Origin: Escherichia phage JK1
Sequence record: MZ436830.1
Reading direction: 5' to 3' (one strand)
Length of the DNA: 64,000 nucleotides
A program made the position numbers and the translations under genes. Position 1 is the stretch's first letter. Every line of letters begins with the position of its first letter. The notes beneath the pieces are model-generated. The model was not told where the DNA came from and searched no databases. It was given only the letters and a program-made list of their open reading frames with translations. Shown here one piece after another: positions 2,429 to 55,568 of the stretch.

Positions 2429-2458
2429 ATTATACCACATCCTTGTGGTAAAGTAAAC
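2429..2458 (-). promoter_or_regulatory. early promoter (GTTTAC-N18-TGGTATAAT)
   Basis: -35 at 2458..2453, extended -10 at 2434..2429. Confidence 0.6.
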
Positions 2459-4278
2459 TACTGGCTCATCCATTCTTTACGAAGGTCAGCGTTATCTCCC
2501 ATGAGCATTTCAAAAAGCTCTTTCCAGTTCTCAGGAAGTTTAACAACATCATATACTGGGTTTTGAATCATCTCACGATATTCAGATTTTTCCAAAGAGC
2601 CAAGTCCCTTAATATAACGGATGCTATGTTTAGGTAGAGCATCTTTGGCACTCTCATATTCAGCGACTGTATAAAACCATTCTTGTTTTTTACCGACCTG
2701 AGCGATGATTACAGGAGTTTTGACGAAGCGAATTCGTCCTTGCTCAAACAATTCTGGCCAATTACTAAAAAACCCGAGCAGAGAAGGATAAATGCTTCCT
2801 AGACCATCATGGTCAGCATCGGTCATAATAGCAATATTATGATAATTCAAGTTTTCAGCTTTTTCACCAAGAACTAATCCAGTGATTGCGCAAATATCAA
2901 ACAGTTCTTTGTTTTTAAGCATATCAGCATATGACATACCCCAACTGTTGAGAACTTTACCACGCAATGGATAACCACCATGAAGTTCTTTATCACGAAC
3001 ATCAATAAGATATCCGATAGCAGAATCACCCTCAGTCAAGAAAAGAGTAGTATCAGCATCTTTACCACAAAGATTCGCTTTGATATGTTTATGAACCTTA
3101 GCTTTAGAAGCCTTTTTAGCTGCTTTAGTTTCTGCTGCTTTTTCTGCTGCCAATTTACGGGCCAAGGCAGCTTCAATAATCGGCATTAAAATTGCTTCAT
3201 TATTTAGAATAGCGCGTGAAATCTTTTTAGCATCAAGTTGAATATGACTACGAATTTCACCAAAAGGAGAAGTAAGTCGTTCTTTAGTTTGAGAATCAAA
3301 TCGCATGTTTTTCATATCACGGACAAACATAACGATAGTCAAACATTCTTTAACGCGTGCTTTAGTTACATCAATTTTGAACTTACGTTTGATTTGTGGA
3401 ATAAGGTCTTCACAAATATCATCCATAACACAGTCAATGTGATGGCCACCATTCTTAGTGTGAATGTTATTCACATAAGTTAATTGGCGAAATCCATCCG
3501 GTGAACGACCAACCGCAATAGAACAATTTTCTTGTTCTTGAACAATAGCATGTTCATCATACTGTCGTGCATATTTCTTAAAATTGCCCTGAACCTTTTT
3601 ACCATTAAAGGTAAATTGAATATCAGGATAAACAACAGCAAGTGTCTGGAGACGATCTAGTGTAATGTCAAGATAAACTTGGGACAGCTCATTAGTTTCA
3701 AATGACATAAAATCAGGAATGAAAGTAACACGGGTTCCTTTCCATTTTCCTGGAATAGTTTCCCATGATTTATTTTCCATGCCATTTGAACAACGAACTA
3801 CAATATTATTTTGACCATCGCCAGTTTCACCGACAAACATCACAGAAAAAATGTTAGTTAAACTAGAACCAACACCATTCATACCACCGGTGACACGTTC
3901 TTTATCATCACCGAAGTTACCACCCGCTTTTGGAATAGTCCAAGCAGCAACTGGACCAGGAATTTCTTCACCGGTAGGTGTTTTAACCATCGCTTGTGGA
4001 ATACCGCGACCGTTATCTTCAACTGTTACCTGATTATTTTTAATGGTAACATTAATTTTATTCGCGAATTTAAACTTAGTACGAATACCTTCATCGACTG
4101 AGTTATCGATAATTTCATCAATAAGCTTAACAAGACCAGGTACATACTGAACACTTTCCCATTTACCAAACAGAAAGCGCTCATGCATTTCATTAGCAGA
4201 AGAGCCAATATACATGCCGCTACGCTTTTTGATATGTTCAATATCGCTCAGAATTTTAATTTCATTCTTAATCATCAC
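2458..4278 (-). CDS. 39: DNA topoisomerase II large (GyrB-like ATPase) subunit, uninterrupted 606-aa form
   Basis: N-terminal GHKL ATPase motifs (VEDNGRGIP) and TOPRIM-like C-terminal part in one ORF. Confidence 0.9.
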   Translation of the reverse strand: MMIKNEIKILSDIEHIKKRSGMYIGSSANEMHERFLFGKWESVQYVPGLVKLIDEIIDNSVDEGIRTKFKFANKINVTIKNNQVTVEDNGRGIPQAMVKTPTGEEIPGPVAAWTIPKAGGNFGDDKERVTGGMNGVGSSLTNIFSVMFVGETGDGQNNIVVRCSNGMENKSWETIPGKWKGTRVTFIPDFMSFETNELSQVYLDITLDRLQTLAVVYPDIQFTFNGKKVQGNFKKYARQYDEHAIVQEQENCSIAVGRSPDGFRQLTYVNNIHTKNGGHHIDCVMDDICEDLIPQIKRKFKIDVTKARVKECLTIVMFVRDMKNMRFDSQTKERLTSPFGEIRSHIQLDAKKISRAILNNEAILMPIIEAALARKLAAEKAAETKAAKKASKAKVHKHIKANLCGKDADTTLFLTEGDSAIGYLIDVRDKELHGGYPLRGKVLNSWGMSYADMLKNKELFDICAITGLVLGEKAENLNYHNIAIMTDADHDGLGSIYPSLLGFFSNWPELFEQGRIRFVKTPVIIAQVGKKQEWFYTVAEYESAKDALPKHSIRYIKGLGSLEKSEYREMIQNPVYDVVKLPENWKELFEMLMGDNADLRKEWMSQ

Positions 4279-4302: not shown

Positions 4303-4330
4303 ATTATACTCCAGTAATCATAAAGCTAAA
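4303..4330 (-). promoter_or_regulatory. putative middle promoter for gene 39 (MotA-box-like AGCTTTA + TATAAT)
   Basis: box about 12 nt upstream of TATAAT. Confidence 0.35.
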
Positions 4331-4345
4331 GGCCCGAAGGCCTTT
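4328..4345 (-). terminator. GC hairpin with UUCG loop between lipoprotein gene and gene 39
   Basis: GGCC-UUCG-GGCC. Confidence 0.35.
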
Positions 4346-15138: not shown

Positions 15139-15161
15139 AAAAAGGACTCCCGAAGGAGTCC
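15139..15161 (-). terminator. rho-independent terminator after soc
   Basis: GGACUCC-UUCG-GGAGUCC followed by UUUUU. Confidence 0.6.
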
Positions 15162-15169
15162 TTGAATTA

Positions 15170-19586: not shown

Positions 19587-19615
19587 AACAATCTCCTCAT
19601 TTAACCAACAAGACT

Positions 19616-19645
19616 ACTATACCATAGTCTCGTCAGCTTGTAAAC
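19616..19645 (-). promoter_or_regulatory. early promoter upstream of dmd
   Basis: GTTTAC-N18-TGGTATAGT. Confidence 0.55.
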
Positions 19646-21081: not shown

Positions 21082-21438
21082 TTAAAAGAATTTAAATTTT
21101 TTCTTTGACCTTTTATTAAATGCATCTTGCAGTTGCATTGTAATACATTTTTCTACATGAGGAGCTAACTCAGCTTTTCTTTCTTGGTCAAGAACAGCAA
21201 AGTCCATTACGACTTTTCCATCAACCCAATCTAATTTTGTCACATACACAATGTGTGTAGAACCATCTTCTAGTTTAATGACAATCTCCTGGATAACATT
21301 TTCCATGGCAGATTTAATTATCTTAAGAGATTCATTAAAAAGACGTTCTTTTCTTTCTTCTTCCCCCTCCGAAGAGGGGGATTCATCGATAATTTCTAGA
21401 TCTAAATCATCTTTATTCATTAAATTCTTCCATATCAC
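21082..21438 (-). CDS. 40: gp40-like protein (head vertex assembly chaperone position)
   Basis: 118 aa between uvsX and 41. Confidence 0.55.
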   Translation of the reverse strand: MIWKNLMNKDDLDLEIIDESPSSEGEEERKERLFNESLKIIKSAMENVIQEIVIKLEDGSTHIVYVTKLDWVDGKVVMDFAVLDQERKAELAPHVEKCITMQLQDAFNKRSKKKFKFF

Positions 21439-22671: not shown

Positions 22672-23520
22672 TTAATCAACTGCTATTGGATGAATAGCAT
22701 TAAACTTATGAAATGCTTCTGATTTTTCTTTACGAGAAACACACATGCGAAGAACCTTTAATGGCTCGTCTTCTTCACCCAACGATTTTCGTTTTTCAAT
22801 ATTAGAAGTTTTCCAACGAGCTTGCTCTGGAAACTCTCTATTGATTTGCTCAAGCGCTCTATTATGTTTAGAATTACTACGAATTGAACTGCACCCGCCA
22901 GGAGCTTGTGCTTTTCCAGATACAACCAGATATTTGAACAAGGCCAAATGCGGATAACCTTGATTAATTAAATTGAGAAATGCATACATATCTTCGCACA
23001 AATCAATTTTTCCATACCCAATTTGTTCTGTCGTAAGTTTTCCGAGGTCATACCATGTATTCGTGAATCCATATGAATTTTCACGATAATTACCCCAAGA
23101 TGAAGTAATTTTAAAAATAGGTAGACGAGCATGACCGTGATAATACCCGCAATCCATGGCATCTTCAACGTATTGAATCAATTCATAGAACTGTTCACGG
23201 GTTAATTGATTGACTTTATCTACACAACGACGGTCATCTCTTTTTCGCATTGAACTCATACGAATAGTAGTATCATCGTCAATCATCCAGATTCGTTGAC
23301 CTGCATACATATCAGTAATTGCTTTACGAGTACCGGCAATTCCGTTTACATCATCAGGAATAGTTATAATTTTAGCTCTAGACCCATAGGCATCATAATA
23401 AGCTTTTTCTTCATGTTCACGCACTACAATATGGGGTTCATAATCAGTCGGAAACATATCAAGGGCAGAAACTGCCCCGACACGCTGATAACTTGGAATT
23501 ACGAATTGAATCATTTCCAC
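22672..23520 (-). CDS. GT-A fold glycosyltransferase (DxD), probable HMC-DNA glucosyltransferase at the beta-gt locus
   Basis: 282 aa; IWMIDDDTTI DxD motif; between uvsX and 42. Confidence 0.55.
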   Translation of the reverse strand: MEMIQFVIPSYQRVGAVSALDMFPTDYEPHIVVREHEEKAYYDAYGSRAKIITIPDDVNGIAGTRKAITDMYAGQRIWMIDDDTTIRMSSMRKRDDRRCVDKVNQLTREQFYELIQYVEDAMDCGYYHGHARLPIFKITSSWGNYRENSYGFTNTWYDLGKLTTEQIGYGKIDLCEDMYAFLNLINQGYPHLALFKYLVVSGKAQAPGGCSSIRSNSKHNRALEQINREFPEQARWKTSNIEKRKSLGEEDEPLKVLRMCVSRKEKSEAFHKFNAIHPIAVD

Positions 23521-25440: not shown

Positions 25441-25461
25441 AAAAAGGGACCCGGAGGTCCC
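25441..25461 (-). terminator. rho-independent terminator after gene 43
   Basis: GGGACC-UCCG-GGUCCC followed by UUUUU. Confidence 0.55.
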
Positions 25462-25474
25462 TAGATTTATTCTA

Positions 25475-28171
25475 TCAGCCAAACAGGAAGTCTAACGAAG
25501 CTTTTTCTTCATAGTCCATACCAGCCGATTCACACATGCCTGCAAGCGGTTTAACAAACGATTTTTGGAACAAAGTTGAGTAGTCAATCCAAGACAGTAC
25601 GTCAGAACGAATTTCTTTTGGAAGTTCTGTACCCGACGGCCAAGCAATGCATTTGTCACCAAATGGATTTCCTTCACGCAATGGAAGAACCATTACTTTA
25701 TTTCCATCCAAAATTGGAGCTACACCTAAACCGCTAACAGCTCGACGATAAGTTAGCACACCACGAATATGGAACGGACATTTAAATCCTGGCCAACCTT
25801 TATCATCATATTTCGCTATATCGTTCGCAGTTTTTACTTCAGCAATAACTTTATAGTCAAGTTGACGATATTCTTTCTCGAAGTTCTTGTAATATTCTTG
25901 GACAGACTCTTCACCTTCCTGAAGAATACGACGAATACTTTCTTCGAGAGCTTCTTGGACCGCTTTAGGCGTTGAACTCTGCTGAGTTTCCATACCCATG
26001 ATTTTTAGATGCGGTTCAGCAAATCGCTTATCTTCCATATCATAAACGTTCAGAGCATAACGCTTTTTCGCTTTCCAAAATCCACCAACGCCCTTTGAAC
26101 CAAGTGGAGGGCAAGAAATAGCTTCACGGTCCATATGCATCAGATGCTCGCGGTTATTCATATAATCACATAACTCACGATATGCAACATCAATCATAGG
26201 TTCCATCTTTTTCTTACCGAACTGATTCATGAATTCAACTAAATCGTTCTGCTCTTTGAATCGGTCAAGACCAACTTTTTCAATAACTTTATCTACACAA
26301 ACATATACCGAATCAGTATCACCTGCTGCGATGAAATCTTCGCCATTAGTTCCGCATACTTTATTCAGATATTCATTAATTTTACGAGCAATCCACTGAA
26401 TACCAACTTGGCCGAAAATTGTGATAGCAGTAGCATTTCGCAAATCATAGTAACGGAAATGAATATTACCAAGAGCACCGTAAAGGCTGTTAATAAGAAT
26501 TTTACGGTTCAGCTGATTTGTATTAGCAAGTGTAGCCGCTTTTTCACATTCTTCAATCAAACTATTGAGAACAGATTCAGTATAATTCGATAGTTCATTT
26601 AAGAAATCATCACTGAACTTAACATATCGTTCAACTTCAGGTTTAGTTGAACAAGACCCTGCGCCTTTCATAATAATCTTTTTAATAGCTTCGGCATTCA
26701 TTTCTTCAGCGAACATTTTCTTTTTCCAATCTTTACGCTGGAAAAATACTTTAGCGATTTCCTTTGGAATGATACCTTCTTGATGCTTATCATACATCCA
26801 TCCATTCGGAGAACAAGAATATTCATCACTCGGTTTAGGAGCTGTTCCTGCGATATATTCATGAATTGGATGAACTTTAAACTGACCACGAATAGTCTCA
26901 GGACTAATGTTAACCTGACGAATAATGCTCGGATACAGAGACGTCAAGTCAAAACTCATAATATATCGACGAGCAATTGGTTTAGGTTCAAATACGAATG
27001 CACCCGGAAAACTCTGTTTAACGTGCGAACCTTGTTGAGGAATAACCTTATGTTCACCTTTCAATGAGTTAAAAATAATGGCATCCCAGGTTTTAATAGG
27101 ACTCATTACACCAGAAAAAGGCATTTTAGCGTAATAAGACATACTTAAAACTAGATCGATAAACCCGCGAATTTTATCAATTGCTTGAACTGATTCTACG
27201 TCAATGATGTTATAACTAATGTATCGTTGATGATTAGTCTCACGAAGTTTATTAATAGGACCGTCGTATGGTAATTTACCTTTTTTGGTTTCATGTTGAG
27301 CAACTGATTCCAAAGAGAATGACGGCAAATTAGTAAAAGCGAATTTCTTGTACAAATCTAAATAATCAAGAATAGATACGCCATCAATAGAATAAATTTC
27401 TTTGCTGCCGTACATATTTTGAATTAGTTTGGATTTTACCCGACCGATTGGAGAGAAACGTTTCATACTGCGTTCACCTAGAATCATTTTAACACGATTC
27501 ATGATATATGGAACGTCAAACCCCTCAATATTCCAACCAGTAAAAATAGCAGGTCGTTTCTGTTCCCAGAGATTGATATATTCCATGAGCATATCACGCT
27601 CATTATCGAATGGCATATAAATTACTCGGTCAAGAATTTCTTGAGGAACTTCATCACCACCTTCACAGTCAAGCTTAGCAGCTAACTTTGCATCCCATTT
27701 TGATACTGAACCATACATTGAATTCAAAAGGTCGAAAACATAAAAACGATCATCAATTGAATCGTAATGAGTGATAGCATCAATTTCATATTCAGCTTTC
27801 ATTGGGTCAGGAAATTTATCACCAGTAACCTCAATGTCACAGTTAGCTACACGAACAAATTTTCGGTCATAAACAATTTCTGAACCGTATGTATCACTGA
27901 TATAAGCGAGTTTAAAATCGTTCATACCGAGAGCTTCGAGACCGATGTCTTCCATTCGTTTCATCCAATCTCGAGCATCTTTCATTGATGGAAATTTTTG
28001 AGGAGCACAATTTTTACCATAGATGTCTTTGTACTTTGACTCTTCCTTACAATGCCTAAACATAGTTGGAAGATATTCTACTTCACGAGTACGTTCCTTT
28101 CCATTTTCATCAATATAACGTTCAACAATATTATTTCCGACTGTTTCAATAGAGATATAAAATTCTTTCAT
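25475..28171 (-). CDS. 43: DNA polymerase (family B)
   Basis: 898 aa; exonuclease and polymerase motifs incl. YGDTDS. Confidence 0.95.
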   Translation of the reverse strand: MKEFYISIETVGNNIVERYIDENGKERTREVEYLPTMFRHCKEESKYKDIYGKNCAPQKFPSMKDARDWMKRMEDIGLEALGMNDFKLAYISDTYGSEIVYDRKFVRVANCDIEVTGDKFPDPMKAEYEIDAITHYDSIDDRFYVFDLLNSMYGSVSKWDAKLAAKLDCEGGDEVPQEILDRVIYMPFDNERDMLMEYINLWEQKRPAIFTGWNIEGFDVPYIMNRVKMILGERSMKRFSPIGRVKSKLIQNMYGSKEIYSIDGVSILDYLDLYKKFAFTNLPSFSLESVAQHETKKGKLPYDGPINKLRETNHQRYISYNIIDVESVQAIDKIRGFIDLVLSMSYYAKMPFSGVMSPIKTWDAIIFNSLKGEHKVIPQQGSHVKQSFPGAFVFEPKPIARRYIMSFDLTSLYPSIIRQVNISPETIRGQFKVHPIHEYIAGTAPKPSDEYSCSPNGWMYDKHQEGIIPKEIAKVFFQRKDWKKKMFAEEMNAEAIKKIIMKGAGSCSTKPEVERYVKFSDDFLNELSNYTESVLNSLIEECEKAATLANTNQLNRKILINSLYGALGNIHFRYYDLRNATAITIFGQVGIQWIARKINEYLNKVCGTNGEDFIAAGDTDSVYVCVDKVIEKVGLDRFKEQNDLVEFMNQFGKKKMEPMIDVAYRELCDYMNNREHLMHMDREAISCPPLGSKGVGGFWKAKKRYALNVYDMEDKRFAEPHLKIMGMETQQSSTPKAVQEALEESIRRILQEGEESVQEYYKNFEKEYRQLDYKVIAEVKTANDIAKYDDKGWPGFKCPFHIRGVLTYRRAVSGLGVAPILDGNKVMVLPLREGNPFGDKCIAWPSGTELPKEIRSDVLSWIDYSTLFQKSFVKPLAGMCESAGMDYEEKASLDFLFG

Positions 28172-28229
28172 AGATATTCCTTAGTTTATAGCCCGAGTTA
28201 TTAGGCTCTTGATATATTATACTCCAAAT

Positions 28230-28247
28230 AAGGGGCCGAAGCCCCTT
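28230..28247 (-). promoter_or_regulatory. C(UUCG)G RNA hairpin in gene 43 leader (candidate translational operator)
   Basis: GGGGC-UUCG-GCCCC on transcript, about 60 nt upstream of gene 43 ATG. Confidence 0.4.
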
Positions 28248-28251
28248 TGCT

Positions 28252-28488
28252 TTAAATTTCTATTGTACGACGCGATATAACGGACTTGCCATCTGTATTT
28301 GTGGTTTTGATAATCGCATGAAATGCGCGTTGGCGTGGGTAAACTAATCGTTGGAATTCTTTTTGGAATTCTATTTGTTTATCTTCCGGGAGGTCAAAAA
28401 CCAGTTGGGTAGAAGACAGACCATATGTTTGTTTTAGATTTTCGAATATTAGAAAAGCTTCGGTAAACTGAATTTCTGATTGTGTCAT
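28252..28488 (-). CDS. small hypothetical protein
   Basis: start trimmed to MTQSEIQF. Confidence 0.4.
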   Translation of the reverse strand: MTQSEIQFTEAFLIFENLKQTYGLSSTQLVFDLPEDKQIEFQKEFQRLVYPRQRAFHAIIKTTNTDGKSVISRRTIEI

Positions 28489-28498
28489 ATAATTTACC

Positions 28499-28867
28499 TT
28501 AATTACCAATCGTATATTTAGGAACGAGTTTCCATTCATGTTTTTGTTTAAAAGAAATAACTCGGAAGTTATTAGTTAAATCTTTCATAAAAGTTCTTTG
28601 ACCAGGAACGATTTCAATCAGTCCCCAATCTTCTAACAACCATGCTATTGAATCACGACGAACTTCATCTTCTTCTGTCATTTCAACTTGGCGACCATCC
28701 ATACGAAGCATTTCTTTAAAATGAACGATATAGTATAGTCCTTTTTTCTGAAGAATATGACAGGACTGATACAGAACTTTATCTTTATTATTAGCAATTC
28801 CCATACGAGTCAAAGTTTCTTTTACTTTCAGAAAATCTTCAGGTTTTTTAAGAGTAATTTCAATCAT
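28499..28867 (-). CDS. regA: RegA translational repressor
   Basis: 122 aa between 62 and 43. Confidence 0.8.
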   Translation of the reverse strand: MIEITLKKPEDFLKVKETLTRMGIANNKDKVLYQSCHILQKKGLYYIVHFKEMLRMDGRQVEMTEEDEVRRDSIAWLLEDWGLIEIVPGQRTFMKDLTNNFRVISFKQKHEWKLVPKYTIGN

Positions 28868-28868
28868 T

Positions 28869-29432
28869 TTACCATTCCAATGCTAGTTTTTTGAGTTGTT
28901 TCTGTTCTTTTACGTTCTTAGTCACTTCTTTCAAAAAATCATCCGTGACTAATCCTTTAAGTTCTTTTAATACTAAAGGTAGTTTTCCATTTTTAGTAAG
29001 AATTGATTTATAGTTAATTGCATCATTTGTATTAACTTGATACCGCTTAGCAAGTAACTTAATAATCAATACTTCGGTGGAATCTTCAACCAGTTTTGCC
29101 CATTTACCATATCTTTTACCACGAGGAACTGCAGCCATTAGATAATTAAAATGAGCTTCATCACTTAAGCCTGATCCAATTAAATTCATAGCATATACAG
29201 CTGGCATGCACTCTGGAAATTGTGACAATGCATTTTCAACCATGAATTTTGAATAATCTTTTTGAACAATAGAGCATTTAGTTTTATTATTAATAGCTCC
29301 AATTATTTCAAAAAATTCATTTTCAGCTTTTTCTTTAAAAGAATCAGCAGCGGATTGGACAGCTGTCCAATCTTTTGAATACCAAGCAACTTGATGCTCG
29401 TTTAATTGAATATCATCTTCAAATAAGCTCAT
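28869..29432 (-). CDS. 62: clamp loader small subunit
   Basis: 187 aa, adjacent to gene 44. Confidence 0.85.
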
Positions 29433-29433
29433 A

Positions 29434-30408
29434 TCACTTCCACTGCATTTCGCATGCTAATTGAATGAAAAGATAAGCTAAATGCAATTCAGTATTAGCT
29501 GCAATACCATGATACTGATTATTTTCGCCGACAATTTCGTACATACGAATAATACTCTGTGGAGTTACACGTGAATAGATTTCTTCGGCAAGTTTACCTA
29601 CGAACCACGAATAATCAGCTGCATATTTTGGTGCTAAAGCTCTGAGTTGTTTAACATCTTTATTTTTGAGAGACTCAAGAACATCATCAATAGCACCACG
29701 ATCGTTAGTAACCAGTGATAAAATACCAGCATCCAAAACACCTTTAGATGAATAACTATCGAGCTCGCCAATAGTTTTACGAAAATCAGGAAAATTCTTT
29801 TTAACCAAAGCTGCTACAACTTTCATATCAGCTATAGCAATTCCTTCATGCTTACAGATTTCGGTCAACCGACGAATCATCTGCTTCATCATTTCAATTT
29901 TATCTTCATCGGTCGGTTGACCGAATGTGATAACTCGACAGCGTGACTGAAGCGGTTTAATAATACCATCAATATTGTTAGCAGTAATAATAATACTGCA
30001 GTTTGAACTATAAGCTTCCATAAAGGAACGAAGATGTCGCTGAGATTCTGCTAAACCTGAACGGTCAAATTCATCAATAACAATTACCTTTTGACGACCA
30101 TCAAATGAAGCTGCACTCGCAAAATTAGTTAAAGGACCACGAACGAAATCAATTTTACAGTCTGATCCATTTACAAACATCATATCAGCATTTACATCAT
30201 GACACAATGCTTTTGCTACAGTTGTTTTACCTGTTCCTGGAGAAGGAGAATGAAGAATAATATGTGGAATCTTACCTTTACTTGTAATAGATTTAAAGGT
30301 TTCTTTATCAAAGGCGGGAAGAATACATTCATCGATAGTAGATGGACGATATTTCTGTTCAAGAATGTGTTCTTTTTCATTTACGGTAATCATAATTTCC
30401 TCATTCAA
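29434..30408 (-). CDS. 44: clamp loader large subunit (AAA+)
   Basis: Walker A SPGTGKTT, Walker B VIVIDEFD. Confidence 0.9.
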
Positions 30409-30427
30409 GTTTTAGTGTAAATTATAA

Positions 30428-30441
30428 AGGGCCGAAGCCCT
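30428..30441 (-). terminator. C(UUCG)G hairpin between genes 45 and 44
   Basis: AGGGC-UUCG-GCCCU. Confidence 0.35.
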
Positions 30442-30444
30442 CTA

Positions 30445-31131
30445 TTAAAAATCATGGGTAGAATCAGCTTCAAGAGCTACTACATAATTCGCGTGTTCAC
30501 CTTCAAATTTAGCAGCACCTTGTTTACCTTTTGCCCAGAGCAGAAGTTTATAATTTCCTGGTTGCATTTTCATATTTGCCATATTGATAATGAAATTAAA
30601 TGTATTTTCACCATCATAATCACCAAGAGTCAAAGAATATTTAACACGGGTCAGAGCAGAATCTTCTACTTTATTAAAACCGTTAATTACGATTTTACCT
30701 TCTTTTACCGTGATAGCAATTGTATCAATTTGCAGACCACGAGATACACGCAACAATTGTTGAAGGTCTTCAGCTTTAATTTCAGTAACAACAGATGCTA
30801 CCGGGAATGGAATTGGTTTATTAGGAGCAACTACTGTACTCGGATCGGCTGCTGGCCAAAAAATTGTTGAACGGGCATCAGCAATTTTAATATTTCCATC
30901 TTCTGACTGGGAAATTTCTGCATCATCATTAACTAGAGACAGAATACCGAGAAAACCGTTCAAATCGTAAATTGCTACATCAAAATCAATAACGTCAGAA
31001 ATATTTGCTTCAGCATAAGTTGTACCATTAACTGCACGAGTCATAATAAATTGACCAGATTTAAGCATAATGCCAGAGTTAATAGTAGCGAAATTTTTAA
31101 GCAGAGCAGTAGTATCTTTAGACAGTTTCAT
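30445..31131 (-). CDS. 45: sliding clamp
   Basis: 228 aa, recognised sequence. Confidence 0.9.
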   Translation of the reverse strand: MKLSKDTTALLKNFATINSGIMLKSGQFIMTRAVNGTTYAEANISDVIDFDVAIYDLNGFLGILSLVNDDAEISQSEDGNIKIADARSTIFWPAADPSTVVAPNKPIPFPVASVVTEIKAEDLQQLLRVSRGLQIDTIAITVKEGKIVINGFNKVEDSALTRVKYSLTLGDYDGENTFNFIINMANMKMQPGNYKLLLWAKGKQGAAKFEGEHANYVVALEADSTHDF

Positions 31132-34975: not shown

Positions 34976-35135
34976 ATATCAAGAACCGTCATTGAAATGC
35001 AAAATAAAATTATTGAAATAAACCCATCTGGTGTGCTAAAGAACCCAATCCAACATGCTTTAGTGAATAGATAAAATGCAAGAAAAAGTATCACATATTC
35101 AAGAAATATCATTATATCAAACTCCGTATAAAGCT

Positions 35136-35153
35136 AAAGGGCCGAAGCCCTTT
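35136..35153 (-). terminator. C(UUCG)G hairpin at 3' end of alpha-gt
   Basis: AAAGGGC-UUCG-GCCCUUU. Confidence 0.4.
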
Positions 35154-36354
35154 ATTTTGTAATAATGTCAAACTGTTCTTTAAAGCAGAAGCTTGAATCT
35201 TGATGCTGATACAAAAATTCATAAGCTTTTTCGCGTTCGCGGTCATAAAGAGTTCGGTCAGATGACAGTTCTTTAATACGTTCAAATGTTGATTCCATGT
35301 CATTTTCATCAAACCAAATGATACCGCTATCATGCGAGGTCAAAGGAGTATTATCAACACGGAATTTTAAATTTTCGCCAGTAGATTTCCAAAATACCGG
35401 AATTGTTCCACATGCACCAAGCTCGAGATGAGTATATTCTAAAGAACGTTGTAGATATTTTTTATCCAACTTACTCAACTGATAACCAAAACCGGATTTA
35501 CTCATACGTTCAAGCATTTCGCTATTTACATAACGGTCAAGAATTTGCGTTGGCAAATTAGGAGCAATTTTAATTTGGTCTACTTGATGAAGACGATAAT
35601 ACTCGTATGGAATTCCTTTTTCTTTAATAGGAATGAACGCTGGAGAACGTTCCAGACCTTCCATAATAGTACTTAGTCCTGCAGGTTTAAGATGTTTTTC
35701 ATGAAAATCAAACATCTGATAAAAACCTTTCCATGTAGTCGTACGACCAATCCAACGGTTGATATTCATGTTAATTTCAGAAACATCTTTCCAGTAGGTT
35801 GACCGAACCTTCGCAATATCCATAGGAGGCTGAAAGTTATATACTGTCGGTGCTTCTTCAATATCATCAAACAGAGAAACTGTTTCAGGATACCATTCTT
35901 TCATCAGAACTTTATTAAAATCACCATTATCAGAATGGCTAAAAATAACATCAGCTCGACGAACAGTTTCTTCTAATCCCAAATTTCGGCGCAAAGAAAG
36001 AGAAGAATGGTCATGTTGATAAACTACAACACGAACAGAAGGTTTAATGTTATCAATAATTTTTTTATAGTTATTAATAGTGTCTTCTTCAACCGAAGTA
36101 GCAGGAACTGAATTGATAATTAGAATATCACAATCATTTACCAGCTTAAGTGTTTTATCATATTCTTTTGCCAATAAAACCGGAATTGAAAATGATTTAT
36201 AATCATGCGCGCAATTACGAGTAAATGATTTATCTTTAGCATAAACCAAAGTTACTTCATGACCATTCTTAATAAACCAATCACGTTGCTCAAGAGAAAA
36301 TTTAGTTACACCACAACCTTCAAGACCTCGAGCCATAAAAATACATACTTTCAT
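35152..36354 (-). CDS. agt: DNA alpha-glucosyltransferase
   Basis: 400 aa, recognised sequence. Confidence 0.9.
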   Translation of the reverse strand: MKVCIFMARGLEGCGVTKFSLEQRDWFIKNGHEVTLVYAKDKSFTRNCAHDYKSFSIPVLLAKEYDKTLKLVNDCDILIINSVPATSVEEDTINNYKKIIDNIKPSVRVVVYQHDHSSLSLRRNLGLEETVRRADVIFSHSDNGDFNKVLMKEWYPETVSLFDDIEEAPTVYNFQPPMDIAKVRSTYWKDVSEINMNINRWIGRTTTWKGFYQMFDFHEKHLKPAGLSTIMEGLERSPAFIPIKEKGIPYEYYRLHQVDQIKIAPNLPTQILDRYVNSEMLERMSKSGFGYQLSKLDKKYLQRSLEYTHLELGACGTIPVFWKSTGENLKFRVDNTPLTSHDSGIIWFDENDMESTFERIKELSSDRTLYDREREKAYEFLYQHQDSSFCFKEQFDIITK

Positions 36355-36403: not shown

Positions 36404-36423
36404 TATAGGAGCCGAAGCTCCTA
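36404..36423 (-). terminator. C(UUCG)G hairpin upstream of alpha-gt
   Basis: AUAGGAGC-UUCG-GCUCCUAU. Confidence 0.35.
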
Positions 36424-36594
36424 TCTACATAATACGCCATACAGAGGCTCGTTAGAACTTTTAAATTTTATGCGCTTATATTTTATAGTTCCTTCTGCTT
36501 TAGCTTTATCATGAGACGCTTTAAAGAGTCTCATCATTTCCTCTTTAGAGGAACGAATTTTATTATAATCTATTTCAGAAGTCTGGGTGTTCAT
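36421..36594 (-). CDS. small hypothetical protein
   Basis: 57-codon ORF below cutoff; coupled to upstream stop. Confidence 0.35.
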   Translation of the reverse strand: MNTQTSEIDYNKIRSSKEEMMRLFKASHDKAKAEGTIKYKRIKFKSSNEPLYGVLCR

Positions 36595-38774: not shown

Positions 38775-38790
38775 AAAGGGCCGAAGCCCT
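38775..38790 (-). terminator. C(UUCG)G hairpin
   Basis: AAGGGC-UUCG-GCCCUU. Confidence 0.35.
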
Positions 38791-38990
38791 TAGCTAAACT
38801 TTTTGGCACCCTTCCAGCCTTCATACATCATTGCGGCTGATATTAATATTGCTCCTGAGCAACTTGAATATTTGTGATTCCAAAACCAGTTTAGAAAAAC
38901 TTCGTCATCAATACCTTGTGCTATCATATTTTCAAAGAACTGACGACGAGCTTCGGCAATTCGCTGCGATAATTTAGATTCAGGATTCAT
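38790..38990 (-). CDS. small hypothetical protein
   Basis: 66-aa ORF. Confidence 0.4.
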   Translation of the reverse strand: MNPESKLSQRIAEARRQFFENMIAQGIDDEVFLNWFWNHKYSSCSGAILISAAMMYEGWKGAKKFS

Positions 38991-39738: not shown

Positions 39739-39751
39739 AGGCCCAGAGGGC
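39739..39751 (-). terminator. GC-rich hairpin after nrdH
   Basis: 5-bp GC stem with 3-nt loop followed by U-rich tract. Confidence 0.35.
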
Positions 39752-39756
39752 CCGTC

Positions 39757-43150: not shown

Positions 43151-43192
43151 AATAAAACCCTTACCTTAAATAGATAAGGGTATTTATTATTT

Positions 43193-51799: not shown

Positions 51800-51823
51800 A
51801 AAAAAGGGAGCCCGAAGGCTCCC
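51800..51823 (-). terminator. rho-independent terminator between NTase-like gene and ATPase gene
   Basis: GGGAGCC-UUCG-GGCUCCC followed by UUUUUU. Confidence 0.55.
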
Positions 51824-51825
51824 TA

Positions 51826-54557: not shown

Positions 54558-54689
54558 TACATACTCCTTTGAATCATATCAATAATATTGTTCACCAGAT
54601 TATAGGTAAACAAAGGATAATTATATTGAATCATCACATACACAACAAACAAAACTTTCATTCTCTTCTCCTTGGCAGTTGACAAGATT

Positions 54690-54719
54690 ACTATACCATA
54701 ACCTTGCCAACTTGTAAAC
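54690..54719 (-). promoter_or_regulatory. early promoter
   Basis: GTTTAC-N18-TGGTATAGT. Confidence 0.5.
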
Positions 54720-55541: not shown

Positions 55542-55563
55542 AAAAAAGTCTCCCGAAGGAGAC
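55542..55563 (-). terminator. rho-independent terminator after rI.-1
   Basis: GUCUCC-UUCG-GGAGAC followed by UUUUUU. Confidence 0.55.
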
Positions 55564-55568
55564 TAATG

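Follow-up and report, generated by a model that had tools for sequence, protein, structure and literature searches.

It was through hairpins of bacteriophage T4 that the UUCG tetraloop became known as exceptionally stable. The CUUCGG hairpins of bacteriophage T4 mRNA are reportedly the subject of a 1988 paper by Tuerk et al. (PNAS 85:1364). UUCG was encountered in T4 mRNA, where it forms an extraordinarily stable hairpin (PMC4371310), and a passage in PMC8948821 that cites Tuerk 1988 describes CUUCGG hairpins as abundant in T4 intergenic regions and as stopping reverse transcriptase. Intergenic stem-loops of T4, for example terminators, often carry a UUCG tetraloop (Durand et al., PMC1702504), and T4 terminators consist of a GC stem, a 4-nt loop and poly(U) (PMC2988022). 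Terminators also lie within the 5′ parts of the mobE and segF coding sequences, and a weak terminator in mobE, which stops ~30% of transcripts, is followed by a middle promoter (PMC2988022).

Composite elements in which an attenuating stem-loop is fused to or overlaps the next promoter, with indels at the edge, have been described as PeSLs and PmSLs (Arbiol 2010, Comeau 2014); the PeSLs of T4 and PST are AGNA-loop-TCNT stem-loops around an early promoter, and the PmSLs were named in vibriophage nt-1. The gp43 translational operator is described in a review as an 18-base hairpin with a UAAC-containing loop together with the ribosome-binding site, and RegA sites are described, likewise in a review, as unstructured and as overlapping or directly preceding the AUG. 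The experimentally identified starts of T4 middle promoters, including P39, P43, P47 and PmobB/Pa-gt.1, are compiled in the Hinton review.

Here, we analysed a stretch of 64,000 nucleotides from Escherichia phage JK1 (MZ436830.1), hereafter the window, with emphasis on a hairpin upstream of gene 43. Judged by its sequence, the window is part of the genome of a Tequatrovirus, a T4-type phage: several hundred Tequatrovirus genomes match positions 27000–30000 and 1–25000 at 95–99% identity (BLAST), and T4 proteins placed on the window keep the T4 order and lie all on the minus strand. It corresponds to about the first 67 kb of the T4 map, the prereplicative region of early and middle genes, and the T4 homing-endonuclease genes are absent from it. 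The large subunit of topoisomerase II is encoded by one unsplit ORF of 606 codons (2458–4278, minus strand), and the T4 gene 39/60 split, the 50-nt translational bypass, 60.1 and mobA are absent. A scan of the whole window with Rfam gave no family at its gathering score.

Both strands were scanned for C(UUCG)G hairpins with uninterrupted stems of 6–9 bp. Ten were found, all on the minus strand, which is the sense strand; the plus strand had none. An eleventh site, cgga on the plus strand, has UCCG in its loop and is still a UNCG tetraloop. The sites are the following:

4328–4345, minus strand: C(UUCG)G hairpin directly past the stop codon of 39.1
15142–15163, minus strand: C(UUCG)G hairpin with a U-run, past a soc-like ORF
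21362–21381, minus strand: C(UUCG)G hairpin inside gene 40, codons 14–20 (SPSSEGE), no U-run, −16.7 kcal/mol
25445–25462, minus strand: C(UCCG)G hairpin with a U-run, 15 nt past gene 43, −13.9 kcal/mol
28230–28247, minus strand: C(UUCG)G hairpin upstream of gene 43, the feature under study
30424–30445, minus strand: C(UUCG)G hairpin between genes 45 and 44, overlapping the last base of the gene 45 stop codon, −13.2 kcal/mol
35135–35154, minus strand: C(UUCG)G hairpin with the a-gt stop codon in its 5′ arm
36405–36424, minus strand: C(UUCG)G hairpin directly past the stop codon of a-gt.2
38776–38791, minus strand: C(UUCG)G hairpin overlapping the stop codon of a 55.3-like ORF, with UUUU next to it
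51805–51824, minus strand: C(UUCG)G hairpin with a U-run, past nrdC.11; orthologues found
55547–55564, minus strand: C(UUCG)G hairpin with a U-run, past rI.-1

Such hairpins have already been described (Tuerk et al. 1988). Motif, organism group and intergenic location are those of the T4 CUUCGG hairpins, and T4 carries all ten at the same junctions. The differences from T4 touch nothing essential: the C(UUCG)G hairpin of the T4 gene 60 bypass region (T4 2834–2857) is missing in the window, where gene 39/60 is unsplit, and there is an extra ORF between regA and the hairpin under study. An initial annotation, made from the letters of the window, had announced at least ten intergenic hairpins with UUCG on the transcribed strand and had placed them correctly to within a few bases. 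Nine intergenic UUCG hairpins and one intergenic UCCG hairpin come close to that number, and the ten minus-strand UUCG sites bear the annotation out with regard to the strand; the tenth UUCG hairpin, in contrast, lies inside gene 40, and the site given as 25441–25461 has UCCG.

With 10 hairpins against a mean of 0.065 and a maximum of 2 in 200 dinucleotide-preserving shuffles, a chance origin is ruled out. The bare hexamer CCGAAG is likewise enriched (29 occurrences versus 12.6 expected, a count matched by 0 of 100 shuffles), C(UUCG)G is the commonest loop type among the long-stem tetraloop hairpins of the sense strand, and 10 of the 36 strongest GC-rich hairpins on that strand have it. At every site the minimum free energy structure obtained by RNA folding is the predicted hairpin, at −9.3 to −16.7 kcal/mol. 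A repeat family or mobile element was also considered as the source and was rejected, as the stems vary between sites and between genera and the loop alone is common to them. A complete Tequatrovirus genome contains 22 such hairpins: 18 share the strand of their flanking genes, 2 have the opposite orientation and 2 separate genes of different strands. Since the orientation of the hairpins tracks transcription, a function in RNA rather than in DNA is favoured.

The hairpins are tied to the ends of the preceding genes. At the nine intergenic UUCG sites the hairpin starts 0–7 nt past the stop codon, which at 35135, 30424 and 38776 forms part of the stem, and the next AUG is 22 to 93 nt away; the gene 40 hairpin, 31 nt past the uvsX stop codon, is the exception. 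Like the intrinsic terminators of E. coli and T4, these elements have a GC-rich stem, a 4-nt loop and a U-rich 3′ flank just past a gene, but on sequence six of the ten UUCG hairpins have an interrupted U-tract and one has none. Clean U-runs, with 6–7 U in the 8 nt past the GC core, occur at 15142, 51805, 55547 and 25445, whereas the sites without a clean U-run have 4–5 U in 8 nt past the G-C core and the gene 40 hairpin has 0; for the hairpin under study, the count is 3 in 8 past the full 7-bp stem and 5 in 8 past the GC core. The absence of a U-tract makes a classical intrinsic terminator impossible at the gene 40 site. The initial annotation had recognized terminators at the four U-run sites, and they do have the anatomy of terminators, lying past a stop codon with an early-type promoter next; its separation of these from the remaining sites was too sharp, given the U residues that the latter retain. 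A simple terminator scan of the sense strand accepted 25445 and 36405, and the hairpin under study failed it on that strand. Several hairpins of this region, with or without a U-run, are labelled putative terminators in a near-identical GenBank record, where the labels are predictions only. We found no 3′-end or termination mapping for these hairpins in the searchable literature, and for this reason termination at the sites without a U-run is something that we infer.

Not every unit boundary in the window uses UUCG: past nrdH (39739–39753, minus strand) and past gene 42 (23462–23478, minus strand) there are hairpins that resemble terminators, with loops of 3 nt (UCU, UUU) and U-rich tails. A further hairpin, of 10 bp with an ATTTA loop (43157–43181, minus strand), stands 6 nt before the start of gene 49, is followed by UUUAUUAUG and may mask the gene 49 ribosome-binding site.

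Many of the hairpins have the next promoter right behind them. For the three U-run UUCG hairpins this is an early-type promoter (GTTTAC-N18-TAnnnT) 14–30 nt below; one also lies ~87 nt below the UCCG hairpin, and a MotA box ((A/T)GCTTTA) abuts the hairpins at 4328, 35135 and 36405, with the −10 hexamer 11–12 nt further. The elements concerned are the following:

15128–15123 and 15104–15099, minus strand: −35 and −10 of the early-type promoter past hairpin 15142
51775–51770, minus strand: −35 of the early-type promoter past hairpin 51805
55531–55526, minus strand: −35 of the early-type promoter past hairpin 55547
4327–4321, minus strand: MotA box AGCTTTA following hairpin 4328
4312–4309 and 4308–4303, minus strand: GGAG and −10 TATAAT next to hairpin 4328, corresponding to T4 P39
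35135–35129 and 35116–35111, minus strand: MotA box AGCTTTA and −10 TATAAT at hairpin 35135, corresponding to T4 P47
36402–36396 and 36384–36379, minus strand: MotA box TGCTTTA and −10 TAAAAT at hairpin 36405, the equivalents of T4 PmobB/Pa-gt.1

The coincidence with middle promoters extends to starts mapped in T4, where P39 (5349), P43 (29933), P47 (36576) and PmobB/Pa-gt.1 (38682) begin 32, 19, 31 and 33 nt below the 3′ ends of the respective T4 hairpins; in T4, mobB is inserted past the a-gt.2 hairpin and its promoter. A stem-loop adjacent to or overlapping an intergenic promoter, the arrangement of PeSLs and PmSLs, is thus found at the hairpin under study, which lies over P43, at the three hairpins abutting a MotA box and at the three with an early-type promoter. 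The UUCG hairpins do not fit the AGNA-loop-TCNT form of the PeSLs of T4 and PST. That pattern is fitted by two 15-bp inverted repeats with a GGTATA loop (19603–19638 and 54677–54712, minus strand), which are built around early promoters (GTTTAC-N18-TATAGT) and span the spacer, the −10 and the first transcribed bases; as inverted repeats of early promoters, these palindromes were dropped as further hairpins of interest.

The hairpin under study reads AAGGGGC[UUCG]GCCCCUU on the minus strand, with a 7-bp stem and a minimum free energy of −13.1 kcal/mol, and starts 4 nt past the TAA (28254–28252) of a small ORF downstream of regA. Its T4 orthologue (29952–29969) is identical base for base. Its surroundings are as follows:

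28216–28225, minus strand: GGAG (28225–28222) and the P43 −10 TATAAT (28221–28216), which begins 8 nt past the hairpin and is followed by a second hairpin
28211, minus strand: equivalent of the P43 start (T4 29933, offset 1722)
28190–28207, minus strand: gp43 operator hairpin, AGCCU[AAUAACUC]GGGCU, fold of −6.3 kcal/mol, 4 nt past the P43 start

When the start is mapped over from T4, the DNA of the hairpin spans −19 to −36 of middle promoter P43, and with transcription beginning 19 nt downstream of the hairpin, P43 mRNA is without it. The second hairpin, 22 nt downstream of the first, fits the published description of the operator and sits on P43 mRNA, from which it follows that the operator is this hairpin and not the UUCG one. 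The gp43 operator of T4 and RB69 occupies the same intergenic region as the hairpin under study and differs from it as a separate hairpin with an 8-nt AAUAACUC loop that is present on P43 mRNA; in eight genera the loop is conserved as AAUAACUC or AAUCACUC.

The loop of the UUCG hairpin may double as a MotA box for P43. When promoters are aligned by their mapped starts, GGGGCTTCG of P43, which falls within the hairpin, coincides in register with the PuvsX box TTTGCTTAA. The distance from GCTTC to TATAAT is 15 bp, against a usual spacing of 12 ± 1 between MotA box and −10; with this spacing, a canonical MotA promoter overlapping the hairpin is no more than a possibility suggested by the mapped start. 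The complement of the hairpin (28229–28249, plus strand) passes the terminator scan, with the stem followed by CTTTAAATTT, and could stop antisense transcription; there is no plus-strand gene near it.

In seven close relatives, the sequence that adjoins the exact 5′ edge of the hairpin is of three kinds, namely regA directly, an extra ORF or a third sequence. Together with the overlap of hairpin and P43, this agrees with the published view of promoter-stem-loop cassettes (PeSL/PmSL) as attenuators and possible recombination linkers. The extra small ORF of the window (28252–28539, minus strand), between regA and the hairpin, is absent from T4 and present in KAW1E185 and in other genera; it matches phrog_3826, a family label without a function, and in relatives the breakpoints of indels fall immediately 5′ of the hairpin.

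Conservation, the lack of which the initial annotation had named as refuting its view, extends beyond T4 for several of the hairpins. In eight Tevenvirinae genera a hairpin stands upstream of gene 43, past the last upstream ORF and before GGAGTATAAT, with a UUCG loop in 7 and UACG in 1, and GGAGTATAAT is kept after the hairpin in most Tevenvirinae genera examined. In the alignment of these hairpins, 96.9% of cells are paired, double changes occur at 4 of 8 pairs and the score was reached by 0 of 500 shuffles, with the qualification for this and the following covariation test that the alignments are small and anchored on hairpins found by searching, and are therefore biased towards pairing. The gene 44 region was compared from Mosig-, Gapriver-, Jiaoda-, Karam-, Dhaka-, Kanagawa-, Slopek-, Tulane- and Krischvirus and from one Yersinia phage and one Acinetobacter phage; a search for relatives with gp44 alone gave near-identical phages only. 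A stable hairpin is present at the 45–44 junction in 13 of 13 genomes (loops UUCG in 6, UACG in 1, GAAA in 2 and others in the rest), with double changes at 6 of 8 pairs and an observed covariation score reached by 0 of 500 shuffles. Inside gene 40, Mosigvirus has two synonymous changes that compensate each other (CCC to CCT, GAG to GAA), and the hairpins found at this place in Gaprivervirus and Jiaodavirus have other loops and overlie codons for different amino acids. The orthologues of hairpin 15142 in three other genera have different stems. In phage TH09 (record positions 141672–141693), the soc terminator has the same stem as 15142–15163 and a CGAA loop on the sense strand, which could be a flip of the loop within a perfect palindrome or an assembly artefact of a record marked ‘UNVERIFIED’.

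The stems thus covary across eight Tevenvirinae genera, with loop and closing pair largely fixed. UUCG is preferred and not required, being replaced by GAAA or other loops in some genera. The preference is confined to the T-even lineage (Tevenvirinae): no sense-strand C(UUCG)G hairpin was found in a 41-kb segment of Krischvirus (RB49-like), and as a negative control, 80 distant environmental regA loci from a RegA alignment search (166 kb) yielded only 2 sense-strand UUCG hairpins.

We consider it likely that the hairpins of the window are the T-even CUUCGG mRNA hairpins that mark the 3′ ends of cistrons and transcription units, serving as terminators or attenuators of graded strength, protecting 3′ ends and forming terminator-promoter cassettes. 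Under this reading, the hairpin would fold once RNA polymerase has gone past the stop codon; the sites with a clean U-run would act as canonical intrinsic terminators, and those with an interrupted U-tract would most likely be leaky terminators or attenuators. The 3′ end would be made by termination or by cleavage nearby downstream, after which the stable hairpin would block 3′-to-5′ exonucleases, and the next promoter, directly behind or over the hairpin, would complete a compact terminator-promoter cassette. The hairpin at 28230–28247 would close the unit whose final ORF is the one downstream of regA, the DNA of the hairpin being at the same time the −35/MotA-box region of P43, and the transcripts from P43 would begin below it and bear the separate gp43 operator.

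Three other explanations were weighed against this one. That the hairpins are purely post-transcriptional protectors of 3′ ends, which are made by RegB (GGAG/GGAU) or RNase E cutting downstream and are then shielded from RNase II and PNPase, is unlikely in our view, even though several observations fit it. Past the hairpin at 38776 the sequence is UUUUGGAUAAUAAAA, and 4 nt from the hairpin it contains a candidate site:

38771–38761, minus strand: GGAUAAUAAAA, which matches the RegB consensus GGAGRAYARAA

Among the GGAU sites of T4, RegB reportedly cuts just two, one of them a GGAU ‘of ORF 55.2’ that is presumably the site past hairpin 38776, and it is reported to cut moderately the GGAG of 47.1, which lies 9 nt past hairpin 35135. 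RegB cuts open entry sites for 3′ exonucleases, and GGAG stands between MotA box and −10 in P39, P43 and P47, that is, in 3 of the 4 hairpin-adjacent middle promoters versus 1 of 32 other mapped ones, an association noticed post hoc and in small numbers. The U-run sites, however, resemble ordinary terminators and have no GGAG near them, and protection is compatible with termination, such that both can coexist. An action at the level of DNA, with the hairpins as promoter parts (the loop sequence GCTTC being the core of the P43 MotA box) or as PeSL/PmSL recombination linkers and the RNA structure incidental, seems quite improbable. The register that P43 shares with the PuvsX box, the three upstream contexts meeting at the 5′ edge and the proposal that composite promoter-stem-loop cassettes mediate indels in T4-type genomes speak for it. 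Yet a DNA palindrome is indifferent to the strand, whereas the orientation of UUCG agrees with transcription at 18 of 20 sites in the whole genome and at 10 of 10 in the window; the stems covary for pairing while the loop stays UUCG, the GCTTC-TATAAT distance departs from the usual one, and most hairpins have no promoter overlap.

The initial annotation had assigned the hairpins without a U-run before genes 43, 44 and a-gt to leaders with translational operators, and we regard it as highly improbable that they are operator parts bound by gp43 or RegA. In favour of an operator role, translation of genes 43 and 44 is known to be repressed, and the start codons of genes 44, 43 and a-gt follow these hairpins by 30–58 nt. 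Comparison with the operator descriptions nevertheless went against the assignment for both genes: the leader made from P43 starts below the UUCG hairpin and has its own operator at 28190–28207, and RegA sites are unstructured and at the AUG, while the hairpin before gene 44 begins at the stop codon of gene 45 and is separated from the gene 44 AUG by 30 nt that contain no promoter. The a-gt hairpin abuts the a-gt.2 stop codon upstream of the mapped PmobB/Pa-gt.1 and is therefore outside the leader. The hairpins hug the upstream stop codon and not the downstream ribosome-binding site, their distance to the next AUG is variable, identical hairpins also occur where no repressed gene comes next, and no protein is known to bind the CUUCGG loop (review PMC4371310).

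Termination, attenuation and 3′ protection by T-even mRNA hairpins are therefore the reading that we retain, and within it a subset of sites may be read twice, which we consider rather improbable: as DNA, a MotA middle promoter, with the loop or 3′ flank of the hairpin as MotA box followed by GGAG and TATAAT, and as RNA of early read-through transcripts, a UUCG hairpin with a RegB site past it. The RegB site would be GGAUAAUAAAA (38771–38761) past the hairpin before 55.2 and, before genes 43 and 39, one shared sequence:

28225–28215 and 4312–4302, minus strand: GGAGUAUAAUA, an identical 11-mer past the hairpins before genes 43 and 39 that resembles the RegB consensus GGAGRAYARAA

If the idea were true, a RegB cut would sever the early read-through message from gene 43, 39 or 55.2, the upstream cistron would be left capped by an exonuclease-proof hairpin and the downstream gene would pass to its middle promoter, and the cassettes would be built-in early-to-middle switches and more than terminators.

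For the biology of the T-even phages, the hairpins are a textbook feature found again, with little that is new. The gain is a corrected map, in which the hairpins belong to the 3′ ends of the upstream genes and to terminator-promoter cassettes and the gp43 operator is the neighbouring hairpin, and the association of hairpin, GGAG and middle promoter is the one point that is possibly worth an experiment.
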